Position numbers and translations under genes: made by a program
The notes under the pieces: model-generated
What the model was told of the DNA's origin: nothing
Seen by the model: the letters and a program-made list of their open reading frames with translations, nothing else
The model's database searches: none
From: Escherichia coli
GTDB lineage: Bacteria > Pseudomonadota > Gammaproteobacteria > Enterobacterales > Enterobacteriaceae
Reading direction: 5' to 3' (one strand)
DNA length: 64,000 bases
NCBI RefSeq assembly: GCF_003991155.1
Contig: NZ_CP031293.1
In this document: positions 13,183 through 60,590 of the stretch, piece after piece
Layout of the letters: each line of letters opens with the position of its first letter
How positions within the stretch are numbered: position 1 is the stretch's first letter

Positions 13183-13266
13183 TTAATTTCGATTATTTTT
13201 CCCGGATGGAAAATTCTTAGAAACCGATCACATACAGCTGCATTTATTAAGGTTATCATCCGTTTC

Positions 13267-13353
13267 GCTGAAAAACATAACCCATAAAATGCTAGCTGTA
13301 CCAGGAACCACCTCCTTAGCCTGTGTAATCTCCCTTACACGGGCTTATTTTTT
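13267..13353 (+). ncRNA. cyaR: CyaR (RyeE) Hfq-dependent sRNA
   Basis: 87-nt sequence GCTGAAAAACATAACCCATAAAATGCTAGCTGTACCAGGAACCACCTCCTTAGCCTGTGTAATCTCCCTTACACGGGCTTATTTTTT matches my memory of CyaR, including the terminal hairpin and U-run. Confidence 0.85.
13327..13353 (-). other. Phage P2-type attB core overlapping the cyaR terminator
   Basis: Reverse complement reads AAAAAATAAGCCCGTGTAAGGGAGATT, which I recall as the P2 att core; no prophage genes follow. Confidence 0.55.
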
Positions 13354-28729: not shown

Positions 28730-29491
28730 TCAGAGCGCATCAAGGAAATGTGGAACAAAACTGCCTGGCCCCTCGCTTCTGGCAACTGCGCGTTCTCCGG
28801 CTTGTTTCATCCAGTGACAGGCAGATGCGATATTTTCCAGCGTATCGCCTGGTAGCGCACAACAGGCAGCGACAACCGCCGATAATGCACAGCCAGTTCC
28901 TACCACTTTGGTCATTAGCGGATCGCCACCGTGAATGCCAACGATACGATGTCCATCGGTAACATAATCCACCTCGCCAGTGACCACGACGATTGCGCCA
29001 GTTTCCCGTGCCAGTGTTTGTGCAGCAGGTATCGCGTTAGCTGCGGCATCAGTGGTATCCACTCCCCGTCCGCCATTAGCAACGCCAGCTAATGCCATGA
29101 TTTCCGAAGCATTACCACGTATGGCGGTTGGCTTATGAGACAGAAGTTCCAGACAAAAACGGCGGCGATAATCGAGTGCACCCACCGCTACTGGATCAAG
29201 CGTCCAGGGTGTTTGAGAGCGTTTTGCCTGTTCAACGGCGGCACGCATCGCCTGTGCGCGTGGCTGCGTCAGCGTGCCAACGTTAATCAGCAACGCACTG
29301 GCGATTGCCGCAAACTGACTGGCCTCTTCGGTTTCGATGACCATCGCTGGCGATGCACCGAGCGCCAGTAAGGTATTGGCAGTAAAGGTTTGCACCACAT
29401 CATTGGTCATACAGTGCACAAGGGGGGAATGTTTGTGAAAAAGATGTAACGCGTGCGCAGATTGCGCGGAACTCAGCAGGTCGACTTGCAT
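28730..29491 (-). CDS. thiM: Hydroxyethylthiazole kinase ThiM; C-terminus ends early at an in-frame TGA
   Basis: 253-aa ORF; the TGA at 28730-28732 is followed in frame by QLTQEVQA and a second TGA that overlaps the thiD ATG. Confidence 0.9.
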
Positions 29492-29625
29492 AGTTTGCTC
29501 CTGCCATAACGTGAAGAAGCAATGACCTGGTGGTCCGTGACTTCCCTACGCTGGCATTATCCAGATCAGGTGATACGGGTATTTCTCAGCCTTCACGCAG
29601 AAGGGCACCCCGAGTCGTTTGGTTG
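29492..29625 (-). promoter_or_regulatory. TPP riboswitch (thi-box) leader of thiMD
   Basis: Minus-strand leader reads AACCAAACGACTCGGGGTGCCCTTCTGCGTGAAGGCTGAGAAATACCCGTATCACCTGATCTGGATAATGCCAGCGTAGGG, the thiM aptamer as I recall it, followed by the expression platform up to the thiM ATG. Confidence 0.85.
29544..29625. repeat. 82-bp direct repeat, left copy (attL-like); lies within the thiM riboswitch aptamer
   Basis: Perfect 82/82 identity with 37276..37357. Confidence 0.9.
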
Positions 29626-29837
29626 AATCTCTATATTTTGTGCCAGCTTAGGGGAAGTGGCTTGCAGATGCAAGCTCGCCTCCATTAATTGCTTCTTCTC
29701 TGTGTACCCCATTTTGTACCCCATATCAGAAATGAAAAAGAAACATTTAACATCTATCATTCAGATGATAAAAACTATTGATTATCTTAATTTGCTAATT
29801 TATATTATTTATCTAAATTTGATAGGTGAGATAAAAA

Positions 29838-30077
29838 ATGACAGAAACCCAGATCTACGAGAACATTAAGCAAGCCATTAGCAGCGCACCACGAAATAGC
29901 CAAACGATGGAAATGCACCTCCAGATGATCAAATATGCTGACCATCTGAAAAAGGTTACGGCAAAAGAGTTTTGTGAAGGTGTAGGACTTAAAGCCAGCT
30001 TTGGTACAGAGTTCAGCAAAATGAGAAATCTTACCGAGCGACTCAAAGCTGCTGGACTTGACACCACGAAGTTATAA
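29838..30077 (+). CDS. Hypothetical small protein (island)
   Basis: 79-aa ORF with SD-like GGTGAG upstream; no recognised motif. Confidence 0.4.
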   Translation: MTETQIYENIKQAISSAPRNSQTMEMHLQMIKYADHLKKVTAKEFCEGVGLKASFGTEFSKMRNLTERLKAAGLDTTKL

Positions 30078-30242
30078 AAAACAAATCATCAATATATTAT
30101 TTTTGTTTTCCAGACTTACTTGCATATGTTTCTACGAGCATAAAAAACAACAACCACCACATAGCTATTACCATAATAATGTTTTCCTTTTATATTAAAC
30201 AGAGAAATAGAATTAGAGCGTGGAATAGATGAATTCTATTTT

Positions 30243-30488
30243 CTATAACTTCTTGAGGTTGAATGTAGAAAAAGACAGCTCTTTCATTTCAATAACACCG
30301 AAATTTGATAGCTGTTTCAGCCAGAATTTTAAACCTGACTCAGAGCAACCTGCTCGATGTAACACATCGCTATATTTTAGCGGTGTTGGCTTTCCTTTAT
30401 AGAGGTAAACAAGCGTTTCGTAGGTGTGTTTTCCGGTGTCGTTACACTGAATGCGGTCTACTTGATTTTTTACTAAATATTGGATCAT
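30243..30488 (-). CDS. Hypothetical small protein, possible winged-helix (island)
   Basis: 81-aa ORF with AAGGAGG upstream, directly after the 239-aa gene stop. Confidence 0.45.
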   Translation of the reverse strand: MIQYLVKNQVDRIQCNDTGKHTYETLVYLYKGKPTPLKYSDVLHRAGCSESGLKFWLKQLSNFGVIEMKELSFSTFNLKKL

Positions 30489-30499
30489 AGTCCTCCTTA

Positions 30500-31219
30500 T
30501 TAAAATGGAATGTCAAAATCGTCCTCTTCTGTCTCAGGTATCGTGTATATATGTTCTCTTCCTGTAAATTCAGAAACCACTATTGAAATTAGCCTGTATG
30601 CCTCTATTTTATCGCCCTGCGTTTCAGCTAAAGCCCACTCAAGGGCTGCTTCTGTTGGCTGTCCATTCGGTTTGCAAATAGTGACACCGCCCCAAGGAAG
30701 CTCTGTTTTTTCCTGCTGAATAGAGCGTGTTGTTTCTAGTGTTTTTTTATCTTCCGTAGGGGGAAGCTGTTCAGGAACAGCTTTAACAGTAGATACTTGC
30801 TCTGTCTGTGGCTTTTCTGCATTTACAGAGGCTTTCGCTTCTCTTGGTGCTGTAATATGTGCATCTGTAAAGGGTAATGCTTTATAGAGTGATGTTTGAC
30901 CGTGGCGTGCCTCTACAGAAAGAACTCCCATATCAACAAACATATTTATAATATTGCGTACCTGACGATCACTAACCATTCCAATATTAGCTAATGTTTT
31001 TTGAGTAGCGTAACATTCTTGCCCTTGTTCATTGAATCCAGCTATATAGCTATAGATTTCAACGGCTGGCAGTGTAGCGGTGTATTCATTACCAGATGGT
31101 GAGTACCATTTTTTAAACATCTTCAACCATTGCTCAACAACTACATATTTTTGTTTACCATCTTTCTGATTTAGACATTTGGCTTTCGCTTCGGCAATTG
31201 TTTTGATATTTTTGATCAT
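30500..31219 (-). CDS. Putative replication-initiator-like DNA-binding protein with SSB-like acidic C-terminal tip (…EEDDFDIPF)
   Basis: 239-aa ORF with strong AAGGAGG SD; N-terminal wHTH-like segment, P/E/K/T-rich linker, C-terminus DDFDIPF. Confidence 0.6.
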   Translation of the reverse strand: MIKNIKTIAEAKAKCLNQKDGKQKYVVVEQWLKMFKKWYSPSGNEYTATLPAVEIYSYIAGFNEQGQECYATQKTLANIGMVSDRQVRNIINMFVDMGVLSVEARHGQTSLYKALPFTDAHITAPREAKASVNAEKPQTEQVSTVKAVPEQLPPTEDKKTLETTRSIQQEKTELPWGGVTICKPNGQPTEAALEWALAETQGDKIEAYRLISIVVSEFTGREHIYTIPETEEDDFDIPF

Positions 31220-31343
31220 TTAGTTCCTCCTTTGTAAGGACTGTAATTAGTAGTTCATTAACAAGTTTTGGAATTGATTTCCCTTCTGCCTTTGCGCGAT
31301 TTAACAACGCGTTATAAGTTGCAGAGTCAAAATTAATATTCAT
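31155..31343 (-). CDS. Ribbon-helix-helix (CopG/Arc-like) small DNA-binding protein
   Basis: Start at MNINFDSATYNALLNRAKAEGKS with GGAGAGGAGA SD; overlaps start of the Rep-like gene. Confidence 0.55.
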   Translation of the reverse strand: MNINFDSATYNALLNRAKAEGKSIPKLVNELLITVLTKEELNDQKYQNNCRSESQMSKSERW

Positions 31344-31365
31344 TTGGTTTTCTCCTCTCCTGTTA

Positions 31366-31548
31366 TTATTCTTTCTCTGCTTCTGCCTTACGCAGTTCAT
31401 CAATAATCTTGAGTGCATCGTCAAAGCATTTTTCACGCTCTGGATAACCTCGACTCCTTGCCATATTACGATTCATTACTACTTGATGTCGTGTTAACTC
31501 ACCTTTTTTAAATGCCTCTACGACGTGTTCCGGTATAAACCATTTCAT
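31366..31548 (-). CDS. Hypothetical 60-aa protein, first gene of the island's minus-strand operon
   Basis: ATG preceded by AAGGAG at optimal spacing; basic/acidic helical sequence. Confidence 0.5.
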   Translation of the reverse strand: MKWFIPEHVVEAFKKGELTRHQVVMNRNMARSRGYPEREKCFDDALKIIDELRKAEAEKE

Positions 31549-32323
31549 AAAAAACTCCTTATTCAGTTAAAAGAAAAACACCTTGCAAGCCTGACGGCTT
31601 CAAAGTGCATTGATTTTGATTATTTAGAGAAGAATGTTTTTCTGTCCCTCTAGTACCTATTATTACATATAAATAAACATTTGTCAATATCTTTTCATAA
31701 AAAATCAGAACCTTTTCATGCACTTACATTTTTTCTTAGCGATTCGTGCTCTCCTGTGTAGTGCTATTCTTCATTACCAGCTAAAACGCTCTAAAACGCG
31801 TTCTAACGAAGTTTTGATAAAAGCAATACATTCTCTTATGTAATGGCTGTTTAGCTCGCCAGAGGCTTATTTAAGTGGCTTATTTTGTATTTGTTAGATG
31901 ATGATAGATATAAAACAGAGAGTTCTTAGATTAGTTACTTTATAAAACGCTCTGTAAAGCCCTGTAGTGAGTTTATATATGTAGGCAAAGCGGTTTCCAT
32001 TCTCTACCCTGCTTAATGCTGTTAGAGAAGCATTTAGACCCCTTATTTTTAATTACCTAAAGTATCCTCTATACATCTCTGTTATGAAACACCTCTGAAT
32101 CCTTCATAAAACACATTATGACGCAAAGAACACTTTTCTAAGGTGATTCCCTTCCTGAACTCTGTTTCTTGCGTCAGAGAGCTACACAGAGAGCTTATAA
32201 AGCTATTATTAATAATAAAGTAGATAAAGTAAGTAAGATAAGTAAGAAGATTAACTAAGATAGATAAGATTAATAAGATCAGAATTCTCTTTCGGTGTCG
32301 CCTCTGGCTTTTCCACCGAAAAC

Positions 32324-33019
32324 AATTACACGACTACAGAATGTAGGAAGTGAAATTGTATTGAGGCTTAGTGAAATTACACGAGGAAAGCAGAGTGTAA
32401 TTGAGCTTTAGCCGCTCTCTCTTCGAGTAATTACACAACTACAGAGAATAACAGAGTTATTAAATGTAGGAGGGTAATTAAGAGTTAGAGAGAGTTAACA
32501 CGTAAGCAATCAGATGATTGGTTAGGTGATTACTCTTACTGCGCACAGCGCAATAGTATTCCTTCGTGGGCGTTACCGCCAACGATAGTTACACGAAGAA
32601 AGTAACGCTTTGCTTTCGGTGTGAGCGGAACGGGCCAGCCACAAAGCCCGAAAGGTAGCGGAGTAAGGCTGCTTGCCAGAGAGTGGAGCTAACGCCGGAA
32701 GGCAAAAGATCATATATATAGTATAAAGAATATTATTTAATTATAGTATTGGTGGAACTCATTACCTAAGGTAAACCGGAGACCACTTCCAACGGTTAGG
32801 CAACCACTTCCAATTGTGTTATTTCCCCTTTTACCCTAAGTAAATTTTAGCCTTTCGTTACATCCATTTATCACATAGCACTTACCCTGTGTAAATCATA
32901 GAATAATGCTCTCTATTCCCTGTGTAATTCCATACTAAAAAATTCAATGAAAAGTAGTTTAAAAGTGCAATGTTAGCTTTCTTCACTTTTACATCACTTT
33001 CGCTGCGCCTTGTGTAATG
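32324..33019. repeat. Iteron-like repeat cluster (AATTACAC core, both orientations) in a 1.75-kb non-coding region
   Basis: AATTACACGACTACAGA at ~32324 and AATTACACAACTACAGA at ~32429; shorter copies at ~32375 and inverted at ~32396, ~32885, ~32918, ~33008. Confidence 0.6.
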
Positions 33020-33312
33020 CGGCTTACAGAGCACTATCAGAAATTATTGATCAAAAATCAACCTATTATTTGTCGAACAAGTTTTCTTTAATGCAACAAA
33101 AATTATTTTTTCAAAATAAACACACAATTTAATAGCTTGCTAATTTTACCAAAATGTAACTACATGATTCTCATGCAAGAAGTGTAGTGATAAGGCAGGC
33201 TAAATCACCACACTAAAAAACTTCGAATTTCGTAGTGAAAAAAGTACTTTACACACCTAATCAACACGCCCAATAATCACTACACACAAATCAATACAGA
33301 AGAAAAAAGAAG

Positions 33313-33864
33313 ATGGCTAATATTGGATACATTAGGGTATCGACTGTGCAACAAAACACAGACCGTCAATTAGCAGGAGTAACTCTTGATAAAGTCTTTG
33401 AAGATAAAGCGTCAGGCAAGAACACTCAGCGCCCACAGTTTGAGGCAATGATGAACTATGTGCGGGAGGGTGACGTGTTACACGTCCATAGTATTGATCG
33501 CCTTTGTCGTAATACAGCCGACCTTCTGGCAACTGTAGAGCAATTAACAAAGCGCGGCGTGTCTGTGCATTTCCATAAAGAAGACTTTAAGACAGGAAAG
33601 AACTCTCCCGCAGGGAATATGATGCTCACAGTTCTTGCAGCAGTGGCACAAATGGAACGTGAAATGATGCTTGAGCGTCAACGTGAAGGGATCGCCGCAG
33701 CCAAGGCCGCTGGACGTATAGCAAAACGTGGTAATGGAAAAGCAATTGATCGAGCGGGAATTGCTGCCGCTCTCGCGAATGGTGGCTCAATTCGGAGCGT
33801 AGCAAAAGATTTCAGTGTCAGCACGCAGACGGTGCAACGTATCAAGAAAGAGCAGGTGGCGTAA
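33313..33864 (+). CDS. Small serine recombinase (resolvase/invertase family)
   Basis: 183 aa; N-terminal catalytic motif IGYIRVSTVQQNTDRQ with the nucleophilic Ser; C-terminal HTH. Confidence 0.85.
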   Translation: MANIGYIRVSTVQQNTDRQLAGVTLDKVFEDKASGKNTQRPQFEAMMNYVREGDVLHVHSIDRLCRNTADLLATVEQLTKRGVSVHFHKEDFKTGKNSPAGNMMLTVLAAVAQMEREMMLERQREGIAAAKAAGRIAKRGNGKAIDRAGIAAALANGGSIRSVAKDFSVSTQTVQRIKKEQVA

Positions 33865-34030
33865 TGCCTCCTTGATATTTGACAGGGACGGTCGGCAAAA
33901 ATCGGGGCTTGCTGATCTCAGCGTTGAGCGGTTCTTGCAATGGTGCCTAGGTGCTCGCTTGTATTCCCCTTCGATAATCACCACTAAGCCACTTATTGCC
34001 TTGTGGAGTGGCCCGAAAATTACTGATATC

Positions 34031-34531
34031 TTATTGATTCAGTCGATCCCATTTAACCGCAGATACAATTCCCCAATTACCACTAGCATTAGGCCTACGC
34101 CACTTCGCGGTTTCCATTCCACGAAGGTATTCGAGAGCTTCATTGAACGAACTGAAACGTTTCTGGGCTGATTTTTCCCCTACTCTAAACGAACCATCGC
34201 GAGTACTTGCCAATCCTGGATGAAAACACGACCCATCTGCAGCATAAGGAACAAGTACCTCCTGATCATCAGGTTTCCTTGAATCAGAAGCCAGTAACTG
34301 CCAAGGCTCAATACGCAAAGCGTCAGCCAGAACCTCAATTGCATCAAGAGATGCATTAGAGCAACCACGCTCAATTCGACTCATATAACTACGTGCAAAA
34401 CCACACCGATCTGCAAAGGCCTCTTGGCTTAAGCCAATAGCTATACGGAACTCTTTTACTCGTTGTCCAAAAAGGTATCTCAGATTCTTTCGCATGGCAC
34501 AAAGATGCAATTTGACGCACCAATTAACCAC
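34031..34531 (-). CDS. XRE-family HTH regulator with uncharacterised C-terminal domain
   Basis: Cro/C1-type HTH (GLSQEAFADRCGFARSYMSRIERG); likely start at internal Met (34495). Confidence 0.7.
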   Translation of the reverse strand: MVNWCVKLHLCAMRKNLRYLFGQRVKEFRIAIGLSQEAFADRCGFARSYMSRIERGCSNASLDAIEVLADALRIEPWQLLASDSRKPDDQEVLVPYAADGSCFHPGLASTRDGSFRVGEKSAQKRFSSFNEALEYLRGMETAKWRRPNASGNWGIVSAVKWDRLNQ

Positions 34532-34605
34532 GCACTAATCGTGACATTTTGAATCAATCATGTATTATTAGCATCACCATCCATTTGACACACCAAGGGA
34601 GACAA

Positions 34606-34953
34606 ATGAAAAAACTAGTATTTGCCGCTTTGTTAATTCCAGTGATGGGCCACGCCACAACCTTTTCCTGTAAAGCAATACAGGAAGGTCATATTGACTC
34701 GGGAAGTCAGAAAGTTTCTGTAGATTCAACTTTTGATATACAAGATAAAAAAATGACCATAAATCTTGGCGGTAAAACTTGGAGACTTGATTTGGTAGGT
34801 CAAAAAAGCATCGCAAAGATGTATGCTACACCTGACGGAGGGGTTGCAGCCACATACATTGACAATGGCAGTATACCGATATTTGTATTACGCCCTTCTA
34901 ATCCCGATGGGGAGATGGCTGTTTACACATTGAGTATGTGTTCTGAAGTATGA
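34606..34953 (+). CDS. Small secreted protein of unknown function
   Basis: Start at MKKLVFAALLIPVMGHA (signal peptide) with AAGGGAGA SD; divergent from the XRE gene. Confidence 0.6.
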   Translation: MKKLVFAALLIPVMGHATTFSCKAIQEGHIDSGSQKVSVDSTFDIQDKKMTINLGGKTWRLDLVGQKSIAKMYATPDGGVAATYIDNGSIPIFVLRPSNPDGEMAVYTLSMCSEV

Positions 34954-35030
34954 TTGATCGGCGTGATATTCACGCCGTTTTTGGGGAAATTTGTATATTG
35001 AAAAATATAGAAATAGAACTTTTATCAAGC

Positions 35031-35756
35031 CTATTTATTAACAGGTAGTAATGTCAGATCGCCATAATGGGCTTGTCTATGGCAATTAGGACATAATGCA
35101 ATAGCATTTTCCACAGAGTCCTCCCCCCCCTTTGAAAGCCACTCAATATGATGAACTTCTAGAAATGGAGTACCATCTTCCTTTAGAAAAGGAGCATCTC
35201 GCTTACAATATTGACATTTTCCATTTGCACTCAAAAGAACTTCAGCAACTACATATGGGCTTCGTTTATAAACTCGTGTTGTTACTTCGATTAGTTCCGG
35301 GATTTTACTTTCTGTCGCTAAAATTTGCTTTCGTTCCACTGAAGATAATTTTGCAGCCGTCTCAACAGCTTCTTCGAAAACCGATTTTACTTGACGATAA
35401 CGCCACATCCCTTCTAAATCCTGGTATAATTCCCAAATACCGTGCACAGATGGTTGATAGATTTCAAAAATATTTCCACGCTTGAACAATCGGTCATACT
35501 TATGATGCCGATGAGTTACATCATCAGTTCGTCGGGCAGTTTTGTTGAAACTCCAGTAGCTCCGCTTACAATTAACTGTATTAGCAATTAAATTGAGCCA
35601 AGTATTATCTTTATAAGATGGAAATAGCTTTCTAAGATAATCATCTACCTGCTTAGCCGTTGCAGCCCCACCAAACTGATTAGCAATTATCTGTATGGTA
35701 ATAGCTCTTATCGGTTGATCGCCATACTTGTATTTTTTGCCTAAATTTTTAACCAT
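35031..35756 (-). CDS. HNH endonuclease, McrA-like C-terminal nuclease domain with distinct N-terminal domain
   Basis: C-terminal CQYC...EVHHIEWLSKGG...NAIALCPNCHRQAHY zinc-finger HNH motif, similar to what I recall of E. coli McrA; ~150-aa N-terminal region unrecognised. Confidence 0.75.
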   Translation of the reverse strand: MVKNLGKKYKYGDQPIRAITIQIIANQFGGAATAKQVDDYLRKLFPSYKDNTWLNLIANTVNCKRSYWSFNKTARRTDDVTHRHHKYDRLFKRGNIFEIYQPSVHGIWELYQDLEGMWRYRQVKSVFEEAVETAAKLSSVERKQILATESKIPELIEVTTRVYKRSPYVVAEVLLSANGKCQYCKRDAPFLKEDGTPFLEVHHIEWLSKGGEDSVENAIALCPNCHRQAHYGDLTLLPVNK

Positions 35757-35884
35757 AGAAGACTCACTAAGCCTAAATTCATCTTAAGTTATTATTGTAA
35801 ATTAGTTGTGAAAATTTTTGATCTCAGACAATAAAAATCTACAAATTATTAGCTGGTTATACACTAAGAAGGATACACGAATAA

Positions 35885-37222
35885 CTAAGTCTCCCAACAA
35901 AGACCATCGATCACATAACAAACGGTGGAAAGTGGGAATGTGTGCAGATAACGCTGGGTAATCCCTACTCCACTCTTTTCATGACCTACCACCTGTTGCA
36001 GATGCGCCAAATTACTCACCCAACCAGCTAAACAAGTAGAAATCATAGTATGCCGGAAACTATGCACCAAGCGCCGCTGCCCATAATCATCAAGATAAGG
36101 AATATCAAGCTGATCACGAACATCTGAAAGAACTTTACCTATCTTTGACATATTTCGACCTGAGACTTCCGAAAAGATTTTCTCTTTCCATTGGCGGTTA
36201 ACAAAATCCAGAAACCCCCACTCAATCAGTTTGGGATGAATCACTACCTGTCTTGTAGCATTCTCAGTTTTACCCAGCCTTCTTTCCGCGATCAGAAGAT
36301 AGTGCCGCTGGCTATCTTCATCAAATTTGATCTGCGACTTCTCCAGTTTAGCAATCTCACCTCTTCTGGCTCCTGTGTACGCCAACAACAAAGTGATCCA
36401 CTTCTGCCATCCATCAGGCTGCTTTAGTGCCCATCCTACAAATTTTTTCATTTCTGCTGCACTGTATGCACCAAACCTAGCTTTGGATGGTGCCGCTACT
36501 ATTCCATCAGTCGGAGACTTAGATAGAATATCTTTGTTTTCAGTCAGAAATGTTTTGAATAACGATTTGTAGATTTTAAGGTGCTTATGTACAGCCTCAG
36601 CACCAACTAAATCCTCTGGCAGCACATCATCACATTCGATTAGTTGCTGAATAGTCATTGACCTATACGGTTGCACTACACGCTTTGGTAAGTTTTCGAC
36701 AGTTTCCATTACTCGCTTAATATCTTGTTTGGTGATTGCCGTTACGTCTGTTTCTTTTCCCAAGACAACAAGCAATACCTCCATATAACGCTCATTTGCC
36801 ATTGAGATCGATTTTGTCCAATTTCGACCTCTTTCCTCCTTGTACATAGCCCACGCATCAGCAAGTGTTAGCACCTTTTCCGGTTTGGCTGGTGGTTGAA
36901 GCTGCAAAACTTCTTTAGAAATATTGTTCAATTGCTGAGGGAGTGGCAACGGAATCATTACGTTACGTGACGAAGCGATCAAGTTTGAAACAAACTTATT
37001 AAATTGTGGCAACGGAGTAGCGAGTGATTTAACGAAAGGAATGTGCGGAGTAAGGCCAATCATCAACGCCGATGCTTCGCGATAACTGTCAGTAAAAAGT
37101 GATTTTTTGTATATCCGACCATCCGAAAGCCGGATTTGTAGATAGTAATTACCGTTTCGCTGAAATGTGTATGGGAGAGTTCTTGACCTCATAAACGCCC
37201 CCTTTTTGTACCTTAACAGCAT
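35885..37222 (-). CDS. Tyrosine site-specific integrase
   Basis: 445 aa; C-terminal catalytic region with HSFRHT and GITQRYLH; starts 53 bp from the right direct repeat. Confidence 0.85.
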   Translation of the reverse strand: MLLRYKKGAFMRSRTLPYTFQRNGNYYLQIRLSDGRIYKKSLFTDSYREASALMIGLTPHIPFVKSLATPLPQFNKFVSNLIASSRNVMIPLPLPQQLNNISKEVLQLQPPAKPEKVLTLADAWAMYKEERGRNWTKSISMANERYMEVLLVVLGKETDVTAITKQDIKRVMETVENLPKRVVQPYRSMTIQQLIECDDVLPEDLVGAEAVHKHLKIYKSLFKTFLTENKDILSKSPTDGIVAAPSKARFGAYSAAEMKKFVGWALKQPDGWQKWITLLLAYTGARRGEIAKLEKSQIKFDEDSQRHYLLIAERRLGKTENATRQVVIHPKLIEWGFLDFVNRQWKEKIFSEVSGRNMSKIGKVLSDVRDQLDIPYLDDYGQRRLVHSFRHTMISTCLAGWVSNLAHLQQVVGHEKSGVGITQRYLHTFPLSTVCYVIDGLCWET

Positions 37223-37275
37223 GATTTATGGTCAAAAAGAGATACAACCACATAATTTTCAAGACTATTTTGGCC

Positions 37276-37357
37276 CCCTACGCTGGCATTATCCAGATCA
37301 GGTGATACGGGTATTTCTCAGCCTTCACGCAGAAGGGCACCCCGAGTCGTTTGGTTG
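37276..37357. repeat. 82-bp direct repeat, right copy (attR-like); duplicate of the thiM aptamer segment
   Basis: Identical to 29544..29625; followed by native sequence leading into rcnR. Confidence 0.9.
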
Positions 37358-37838: not shown

Positions 37839-38648
<810 letters not shown>

Positions 38649-59694: not shown

Positions 59695-60015
59695 ATGATC
59701 GTGCAAAAAGAGCTGGTCGCTATTTATGATTATGAAGTCCCTGTACCTGAAGATCCGTTTTCCTTCAGACTTGAGATCCATAAATGCTCTGAATTATTTA
59801 CAGGTTCCATCTACCGGCTGGAGCGATTCCGGCTACATCCAACATTTCATCAACGTGATCGAGAGGATATCGACCCGCTAATAAATGATGCGTTGATTTA
59901 TATAAGAGATGAGTTTATTGATGAGCGAAAATTACGGGGCGAATCACCAGAAATGGTAATAGCCATTTTTAATCGTGAACTACAGAATATATTCAACCAA
60001 GAAATAGAAAAATAG
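59695..60015 (+). CDS. yehK: Small protein YehK
   Basis: 106-aa ORF at conserved position. Confidence 0.75.
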   Translation: MIVQKELVAIYDYEVPVPEDPFSFRLEIHKCSELFTGSIYRLERFRLHPTFHQRDREDIDPLINDALIYIRDEFIDERKLRGESPEMVIAIFNRELQNIFNQEIEK

Positions 60016-60068
60016 CTTTATTAAAGAGGGAGACGGTATTCCCCCTTAGATGCGTTTCAATTTGCCCG

Positions 60069-60158
60069 TTACTTCAACAAATCAATCAACCGTAACAGAG
60101 CCACTAATAACTCCAGTACGGCAATGAGCACAGTTAACTTTTGTGTCAGCGTGTCCAT
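60069..60158 (-). CDS. zorO: Type I toxin, ZorO-like small hydrophobic peptide (29 aa)
   Basis: Minus-strand ORF MDTLTQKLTVLIAVLELLVALLRLIDLLK with TAAGGAGA SD; matches my memory of ZorO; approximate coordinates. Confidence 0.6.
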   Translation of the reverse strand: MDTLTQKLTVLIAVLELLVALLRLIDLLK

Positions 60159-60384
60159 CCGCTCTCCTTATTAAGGAGCGCAACACCAGCACCTTACCCT
60201 TACACTGCCTGTCGATACTGGTTTACGTATGTTGGACCACGATGTTGCACTCCGGATCAGGGCACTACCTGCGGCACCACCCGTCCGGTAGCCATGACTT
60301 GAAATGGGTTCGATCCGGCGCAACGTCCCAACAGTCAGGATTATAAATCTCATTATCTTAATTGCAACGGGGTCCACCGATGGT

Positions 60385-60469
60385 TATAATTCGTTCGTTG
60401 GAACACGATGTTGCACAGGCTGCGGCGTTGGGCCTGAAAATAGTAAATAAAAGAACCTGCCTCACCAGC
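60385..60469 (+). ncRNA. orzO: Putative OrzO-like antisense sRNA antitoxin (boundaries uncertain)
   Basis: Plus-strand CACGATGTTGCAC can pair with the zorO 5' UTR (same 13-mer at ~60237); ends in hairpin ACCTGC-CTCACCA-GCAGGT plus T7. Confidence 0.4.
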
Positions 60470-60590
60470 AGGTTTTTTTATTTACTGTGATCTGCTTTCC
60501 AGATATTTTCCGCTCAAACAACTAATGCGCCAAACATTTATTGCGCGTAAAATATCGTTTATTTCATTAATACATTTCAGGGATGAATAT

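Follow-up and report, generated by a model that had tools for sequence, protein, structure and literature searches.

Judged by its sequence, the locus between yehK and yehL in the 64-kb Escherichia coli stretch analysed here (the window) belongs to the zor-orz type I toxin-antitoxin modules known from E. coli and is present intact, in a single copy. We assign a probability of about 0.93 to the reading that it is a functional-looking single-copy module of the zorP/orzP sequence type which encodes the ZorO peptide. Its sequence preserves both promoters with their hexamers, the RBS, an ORF of full length with its start and stop codons, and 19 of 20 pairing positions between the small RNA and the toxin leader. 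The locus is already known and is an ordinary member of a widespread and well-described module.

Architecture of the module

The module lies inside the yehK-yehL intergenic region, which in its entirety spans positions 60016-60590 (575 nt) and is flanked by yehK (59695-60015) and yehL (from 60591) according to the annotation of the 100% identical genome of E. coli 2016C-3878. This annotation agrees with an earlier reading made without database searches (the sequence-only reading), which had placed a zorO-orzO-like locus between these two genes. The window was compared with 21 further zor/orz units and two orz-only loci from 13 other E. coli genomes (14 with the window) and three other Escherichia species. 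The yehK-yehL site is common to the window and the 13 other E. coli genomes; it is based on annotation for the identical genome and 12 further genomes. The coordinates of all features are collected in Table 1.

The hydrophobic 29-aa peptide encoded on the minus strand, which the sequence-only reading had matched to ZorO, is letter-for-letter the same as the published ZorO sequence (PMC6669753 section 4.3), a peptide that was synthesised, expressed and tested for toxicity by Otsuka et al. (PMC6669753). Exactly this peptide is encoded by 16 of the 22 compared units, and a published survey found it as the product of 72.5% of all zor ORFs (PMC11264685). Variable sites of the ORF across the 22 units comprise seven synonymous and four conservative non-synonymous ones. 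A scan of the Zor peptide against NCBIfam matched no family. The strong SD reported ahead of the ORF proved to be an AAGGAG motif located 5 nt 5' of the ATG.

Both divergent sigma-70-like promoters are served by one palindromic -35 hexamer, TTGCAA, and the hexamers TTGCAA and TATAAT occur in at least 99% of zor-orz loci (PMC11264685 Table 3). The zor leader showed no indels relative to the O157-type copies. Its length and RBS register are identical to those of the mapped EDL933 zorO leader, which is 174 nt long and has its RBS at +164..+169 and its 'exposed after processing' (EAP) region at +73..+102 (PMC5397157). In leader folds calculated for minimum free energy (MFE) and from the alignment, +1..+22 pairs with +74..+102, and the variable part of the target resides inside an internal loop; these folds match the published structure model. 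The EAP region contains a conserved GGAGUG motif, and its 3' 20 nt (60231-60250) represent the predicted Orz binding site. The RBS is predicted to be largely sequestered, with a mean P(unpaired) of 0.08 in the leader folds, and all six anti-RBS/RBS pairs are invariant in 11 distinct UTRs. By analogy, the paired 5' end (+1..+22) may keep the EAP closed until the first 28 nt are removed, consistent with the probing reported in PMC5397157. As the predicted accessibility of the target rose only modestly upon removal of these 28 nt, from 0.33 to 0.43, the opening of the EAP is taken from the published probing and not from the folds. No compensatory changes were found in the alignment fold of the leader because the compared sequences are too similar; the cis structure thus rests on energy and literature. 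The terminator-like hairpin of the zor mRNA has the same position in 22 of 22 compared units and is separated from the yehK stop codon by only 14 nt; its stem is weakened by two window-specific substitutions (60027 and 60032).

Table 1. Positions of the zor-orz elements and of island ORFs in the window.
Feature	Position	Strand	Description
zor sigma-70 promoter	60340..60367	-	-35 TTGCAA (60367..60362), 16-nt spacer, -10 TATAAT (60345..60340); promoter scan 10/12
zor mRNA 5' end	60311..60332	-	+1..+22; predicted cis pairing with EAP (folds)
zor 5' UTR, 174 nt	60159..60332	-	putative start G at 60332, 7 nt past -10, by homology
EAP region	60231..60260	-	putative ribosome standby, +73..+102; coordinates transferred from PMC5397157
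Anti-RBS CUCCUU	60173..60178	-	+155..+160; predicted RBS-pairing hairpin (MFE and alignment folds)
RBS AAGGAG	60164..60169	-	mRNA +164..+169; same position as published (PMC5397157)
zor toxin ORF, 29 codons + stop	60069..60158	-	encodes MDTLTQKLTVLIAVLELLVALLRLIDLLK; identical to published ZorO
zor mRNA terminator-like hairpin	60029..60045	-	GGGGGAATACCGTCTCC then CTCTTTAATA; terminator scan
orz sigma-70 promoter	60362..60390	+	-35 TTGCAA (60362-60367), 17-nt spacer, -10 TATAAT (60385-60390); promoter scan 10/12
Orz sRNA, ~83 nt	60397..60479	+	seed 60397-60416, V1 ACG 60405-60407, internal hairpin, terminator stem 60454-60474, U7
Small serine recombinase	33313..33864	+	island
HNH-like ORF	35031..35756	-	island
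Tyrosine-recombinase-like ORF	35885..37222	-	directly beside second aptamer copy, island

Orz and its pairing with the zor leader

The divergent OrzO-like sRNA proposed for the plus strand was recovered by the Rfam covariance model RF02083 (OrzO-P), which matched 60404-60479 end to end (model positions 1-76) with 102.8 bits at a gathering score of 60. No second OrzO-P match above threshold was found in a scan of the 64-kb window, and a weak match on the reverse strand results from the symmetry of the Orz terminator. This strong intrinsic terminator, also noticed previously, consists of the stem listed in Table 1 followed by seven T (60473-60479). In a wider frame (60442-60486) it forms a symmetric A-tract/stem/T-tract arrangement with 19-nt arms of 95% complementarity, so that by sequence it could work in both directions. 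The fold of Orz has a z-score of -2.6. The sRNA span originally given as 60385-60470 was revised, since 60385-60390 is its -10 box; most likely, the sRNA extends from 60397 to 60479. Its 5' end is presumed to be at 60397, given the position of the -10 box and the published rule that Orz-zor pairing starts at the 5' end of the sRNA (PMC3919570).

The 20-mer GTTGGAACACGATGTTGCAC at 60397-60416, beginning 7 nt past the plus-strand -10 box, recurs at 60231-60250 with one mismatch. A search for it with up to three mismatches revealed no third site in the 64-kb window, 0.01 being expected by chance. The toxin mRNA has the sequence of the minus strand, and the repeat, direct on the plus strand, therefore makes the 5' end of Orz antisense to the toxin leader. 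A complementarity of 13 nt to the toxin's 5' UTR had been described before; it is present (60404-60416 versus 60238-60250) but forms only part of a 20-nt region in which 19 bases are paired as 6 + 13 around an A/G mismatch at 60403/60237. The duplex of the 5' 22 nt of Orz with the leader has a calculated energy of -34.0 kcal/mol and the pattern 6(1)13, i.e. 19 nt. An RNAduplex calculation with full-length Orz and the whole leader yielded -64.9 kcal/mol; this structure was over-extended and unrealistic, and the 5' 22 nt were used instead. According to Wen et al. (PMC3919570), a 5(1)12 pairing of 17 nt round one unpaired base suffices for repression, and the functional threshold given there is a continuous stretch of 15 nt or more, or 17 nt or more if one mismatch lies inside (PMC3919570). 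The 6(1)13 pairing of the window lies above this threshold.

The same register is supported by comparison of alleles. Five distinct seed/target allele pairs form standard pairs in 95% of cells, and changes on both sides that keep the pair occur at positions 5, 6, 9, 10 and 11 among three allele types. The seed-target covariation score was reached by none of 500 shuffles, and shifting the register by 1-3 nt lowered pairing to 26-41%. Position 7 is paired in O-type alleles and mismatched in P-type and third-type alleles, which identifies the mismatch of the window as a family feature and not as decay.

The 5' ends of the two transcripts (60311-60332 on the minus strand and 60397-60416 on the plus strand) both start with GUUGG, share a GA(C/U)GUUGC motif and are arranged symmetrically about the common -35 hexamer. 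A test for an inverted duplication of the zor and Orz 5' ends gave a weak gapped similarity, which 21 of 1000 shuffles scored equally well. Probably, this similarity is a by-product of both ends pairing with the same EAP segment, in cis and in trans, respectively.

Each step of the mechanism proposed for this locus was shown for the O157 zorO-orzO pair and is applied here by sequence identity or homology. Minus-strand transcription from 60332 would yield an mRNA of ~305 nt with the 174-nt leader. In the full-length transcript, pairing of +1..+22 with +74..+102 would close the EAP while the AAGGAG RBS is locked in a hairpin, and for these two reasons the full-length leader should be translated poorly. 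Removal of the first 28 nt would free +73..+102 as a ribosome standby site and increase translation. The 83-nt Orz would pair through its 5' 20 nt with leader positions +83..+102 (19 of 20 bases), thereby blocking the standby site and triggering RNase III-dependent decay, so that the toxin is kept off. The ZorO peptide, if made, would insert into the inner membrane and cause depolarisation, ATP depletion and a growth stop. By analogy with the O-type pair we infer the transcription start sites, the processing and the repression by the Orz allele of the window. For that pair, RNase III dependence, Hfq independence and the seed rules (PMC3919570), 5' processing and the standby model (PMC5397157), and the toxicity of ZorO with membrane depolarisation and loss of ATP (PMC6669753, PMC9860968) are experimentally known. 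That toxin overexpression stops growth and that rescue by the sRNA is RNase III-dependent was reported for EDL933 zorO-orzO only (PMC3919570).

Compared to canonical OrzP of EDL933 and MG1655, the window Orz carries three substitutions, C60423, C60426 and G60430, which give the internal hairpin G-C pairs where canonical OrzP has two G-U pairs and a mismatch. The strengthened hairpin (60406-60415 with 60421-60430) overlaps nucleotides 10-19 of the seed, and the predicted P(unpaired) of seed nucleotides 1-20 is 0.33 for the window Orz versus 0.42 for canonical OrzP. The modelled structures suggest that these substitutions could reduce antitoxin efficiency. That the allele would bring about an altered toxin-repression threshold or a toxin-independent regulatory role like that of orphan OrzP is a suggestion to which we give a slim chance. 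Two of the three substitution states also occur in E. whittamii. The exact allele is present in SMS-3-5 and at least 24 other complete genomes, apparently always in single copy; the class of at least 99% identity to the allele comprises 332 records, which may include partial alignments. Among 5,426 complete E. coli genomes, 72 records are at least 99% identical across all 575 nt.

The slightly weakened zor terminator stem and the slightly lower seed accessibility of this allele would also fit a silent or decaying remnant whose sRNA acts mainly on other targets, a role that has to be assumed for OrzP in K-12-like strains, which have no toxin. Only the sRNA half is present in about a third of E. 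coli genomes (our own search; PMC11264685), and conservation of Orz consequently needs no toxin. In addition, an MG1655 strain with a single chromosomal zorO-orzO grew like its parent in LB (PMC9860968), and according to a section heading of that paper multiple copies help growth in aminoglycosides while a single chromosomal copy does not. We nevertheless regard decay as very unlikely for the window: all the sequence elements named at the outset are intact, the variable sites of the ORF are more often synonymous than non-synonymous, and within the 64-kb window the seed 20-mer matches nothing but the zor leader.

Sequence type and origin of the unit

The compared units fall into three sequence types according to V1, namely O (GAA), P (ACG) and a third type (GCC), which differ mainly where sRNA and leader pair and in the body of the sRNA. 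In the window V1 reads ACG on both the sRNA and its target. Types were assigned by the rule of a blastn bit score >650 (Shore et al., PMC11264685) for the 413-nt unit, with the O157-like strain 10671 instead of EDL933 as the zorP/orzP reference. The unit of the window scored 673 bits (96.1% identity) against O157-type zorP/orzP, 585 bits (91.5%) against the third type and 513 bits (87.9%) against zorO/orzO. Hence the previous description as zorO-orzO-like holds for the peptide, which is ZorO, and for the sRNA family, which is OrzO-P, but not for the locus type, which is zorP/orzP with V1 ACG and 673 versus 513 bits.

V1 ACG and a score above 650 bits thus place the window in zorP/orzP, whereas its peptide has Thr3 instead of the T3S change of ZorP. 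In practice T3S is not a defining feature of zorP/orzP because the published scheme sorts by nucleotide score. The exact ZorO peptide is also encoded by six of the nine other P-type units, and the P-type second copy of E. whittamii keeps Thr3 together with Q6R. Ser3 ('ZorP') was found in the second copy of three O157-like genomes only, among all 22 units. The third type (V1 GCC; L008, L011c1, L012c1 and L014c1) is presumably the published zorQ/orzQ; the A20S ZorQ peptide is absent from all four of its units. The subtype is functionally relevant despite the identical toxin, since wild-type OrzP fails to repress zorO and V1 sets specificity (PMC3919570). The zor-orz papers cited here contain no direct demonstration of OrzP repressing a P-type zor leader; their mutational work concerns zorO throughout.

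An assignment of the locus to zorO/orzO proper, as the orthologue of EDL933 z3289 and OrzO, could invoke the peptide, which is ZorO and not ZorP. At the sequence level this assignment is refuted, and we attribute practically no weight to it: V1 is of the OrzP type (ACG) and not GAA on sRNA as well as target, and the match to zorO/orzO reaches 513 bits and 87.9% compared to 673 bits and 96.1% for zorP/orzP at a cut-off of >650, so that V1 and score both fall outside zorO/orzO. Moreover, the two types are functionally distinct, wild-type OrzP being without effect on zorO (PMC3919570).

Among the closest described counterparts of this zorP/orzP-type unit, zorP-orzP of O157:H7 EDL933 (z3290 and its divergent sRNA; Fozo 2010, Wen 2014) has the same position beside yehL. 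The O157:H7 pair shares 96.1% identity over the 413-nt unit, V1 ACG, the 6(1)13 pairing with the same A/G mismatch, the promoters, the UTR length and the RBS. In contrast, the window has Thr3 (the ZorO sequence) where ZorP has Ser3, differs by three substitutions in the internal hairpin of the sRNA (60423, 60426, 60430), lacks an upstream zorO/orzO partner copy and has a shorter, different yehK junction that results in a YehK of 106 aa versus 105 aa. The experimentally characterised EDL933 zorO-orzO shares with the window the same 29-aa toxin, architecture and Rfam sRNA family as well as the 174-nt leader, the EAP region and the RBS hairpin. It differs in overall identity (87.9%), V1 (GAA there, ACG in the window), the sRNA body and the pairing, which comprises 18 continuous pairs there and 19 with one internal mismatch in the window. 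OrzPmg, the orphan antitoxin of K-12 MG1655 (PMC11264685), is found at the same site 5' of yehL and its sRNA differs at three positions; an OrzP with three differences from the window Orz was seen by northern blot in MG1655 (PMC11264685). From 60299 onward the window is ~96% identical to K-12, where ~30 nt of the zor leader are left at the OrzPmg locus and both the toxin ORF and the target site are missing. K-12 MG1655 (L003 3000-3190 / L004) contains a full OrzP-type sRNA gene with both promoters, which scored 99.9 bits with the Rfam model. Other toxin systems of the standby model also possess a divergent sRNA whose pairing site lies at a long distance 5' of a structurally sequestered RBS, and their toxin mRNAs likewise become active through 5' processing (PMC5397157). 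Their toxins and RNAs are unrelated in sequence, and the palindromic common -35 hexamer is a feature of the locus in the window.

Against one O157-type reference, the combination of a P-type sRNA with the ZorO peptide looked like the product of a homologous deletion in an O157-like zorO/orzO-zorP/orzP tandem that fused the first copy's ORF with the second copy's leader and sRNA. With that reference, informative sites left of ~60155 matched copy 1 in nine of ten cases, sites right of 60236 mostly matched copy 2, and an 80-nt stretch between them, identical in both copies, offered a possible crossover site. This explanation was convincing as long as a single reference was considered and dissolved when the comparison was extended to the 22 units of the 14 E. 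coli genomes and the three other Escherichia species. The 'copy 1' states of the ORF, Thr3 among them, also occur in other P-type single copies within these 22 units, in P-type second copies of Q-P genomes, and in copy 2 of E. whittamii and in Escherichia sp. MOD1-EC7003. As Thr3 is widespread among the units, the T3S cluster is a derived state of the O157-like copy 2 and no type marker. Furthermore, the yehK junction differs from that of two-copy genomes by ~55 missing nucleotides, which does not fit a simple unequal crossover. We therefore consider a recombinant origin unlikely and retain the reading of the locus as a single zorP/orzP-type unit with the ZorO peptide.

Distribution, genomic surroundings and annotation

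Only one toxin copy had been seen previously, and the 64-kb window indeed contains a single zor ORF. In a 2024 survey of 2,212 assemblies, 3% had no zor-orz sequence, ~30% the sRNA only, 25% one unit and 42% two units (PMC11264685), and arrays of three or four units were rare (Shore et al., PMC11264685). With a single unit in a quarter of E. coli assemblies, one copy is normal (PMC11264685). The 5,426 complete E. coli genomes that we searched agree with this published copy-number picture: some match to the interval was found in 5,232, and at least 80% of the interval, corresponding to at least one full toxin-antitoxin unit, was covered in 3,392. Most of the remaining genomes match from ~60299 onward, which corresponds to the sRNA half alone, as in K-12.

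Of the sampled genomes with one unit, four are P (the window included), one is O and one is of the third type; the tandem genomes are O-P, third-P or third-O. E. coli N3 (L014, 900-2072) has a tandem with the third type first and O second, O adjoining yehL; the order of types in tandems is accordingly not fixed. Intact zor/orz ORFs were also detected in three Escherichia genomes outside E. coli (L015-L017): Escherichia sp. E1V33 with a single O unit, E. whittamii with an O-P tandem, and Escherichia sp. MOD1-EC7003 with a single P unit encoding the ZorO peptide. In these three, read without annotation, the sequence adjacent to the locus matches yehL-proximal or yehK-proximal flanks. The tandem O-P arrangement either predates E. 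coli or was transferred.

The 3' end of yehK and the spacer to the zor terminator are highly variable among genomes (window 60000-60030; L002, L005-L014). Owing to its short yehK junction the window encodes a YehK of 106 aa, compared to 105 aa in K-12 and the O157-like strains. In four sampled genomes yehK is annotated as frameshifted or with an internal stop. Lengths of the yehK-yehL interval vary with its architecture and amount to 306, 573-779 or 1147-1240 nt. On the other side of the module, 5' of yehL, two repeats of 16 nt were noted, an inverted one (60502-60517 / 60541-60556, 88% complementary) and a tandem direct one, CAAACAACTAATGCGC / CAAACATTTATTGCGC (60515-60546). The repeat region 60502-60556 is conserved in K-12 and, from its sequence, could be a candidate regulator binding site for the yehL operon.

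Elsewhere in the window, thiM (28730..29491, minus strand) and rcnA (37839..38648, plus strand) flank an island of ~7.7 kb (29526-37354). TPP-riboswitch matches on the minus strand mark both of its ends (29526-29622 and 37259-37354) and have 82 nt of the aptamer core in common as an exact direct repeat; the island carries the recombinase-like and HNH-like ORFs listed in Table 1. From this arrangement the island resembles an integrative element whose attachment site would be the thiM riboswitch, which it duplicates. K-12 presumably lacks the extra DNA of the island, going by K-12 map positions. The CyaR (RyeE) sRNA gene, which is expected in this neighbourhood, was located at 13265-13350 on the plus strand with 100.7 bits at a gathering score of 47.

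The yehK-yehL interval is blank in all 13 of the PGAP-annotated RefSeq genomes inspected. The annotation of MG1655 (NC_000913.3) is also blank at this site, leaving the OrzP-type sRNA unmarked. The module is not annotated because NCBIfam has no model for the Zor peptide, and as annotation pipelines leave the interval empty, readers of raw sequence will keep rediscovering the locus. The practical point of the locus is this annotation gap; biologically, it opens no new question and adds a further example to a type I module that is well surveyed and variable in copy number.
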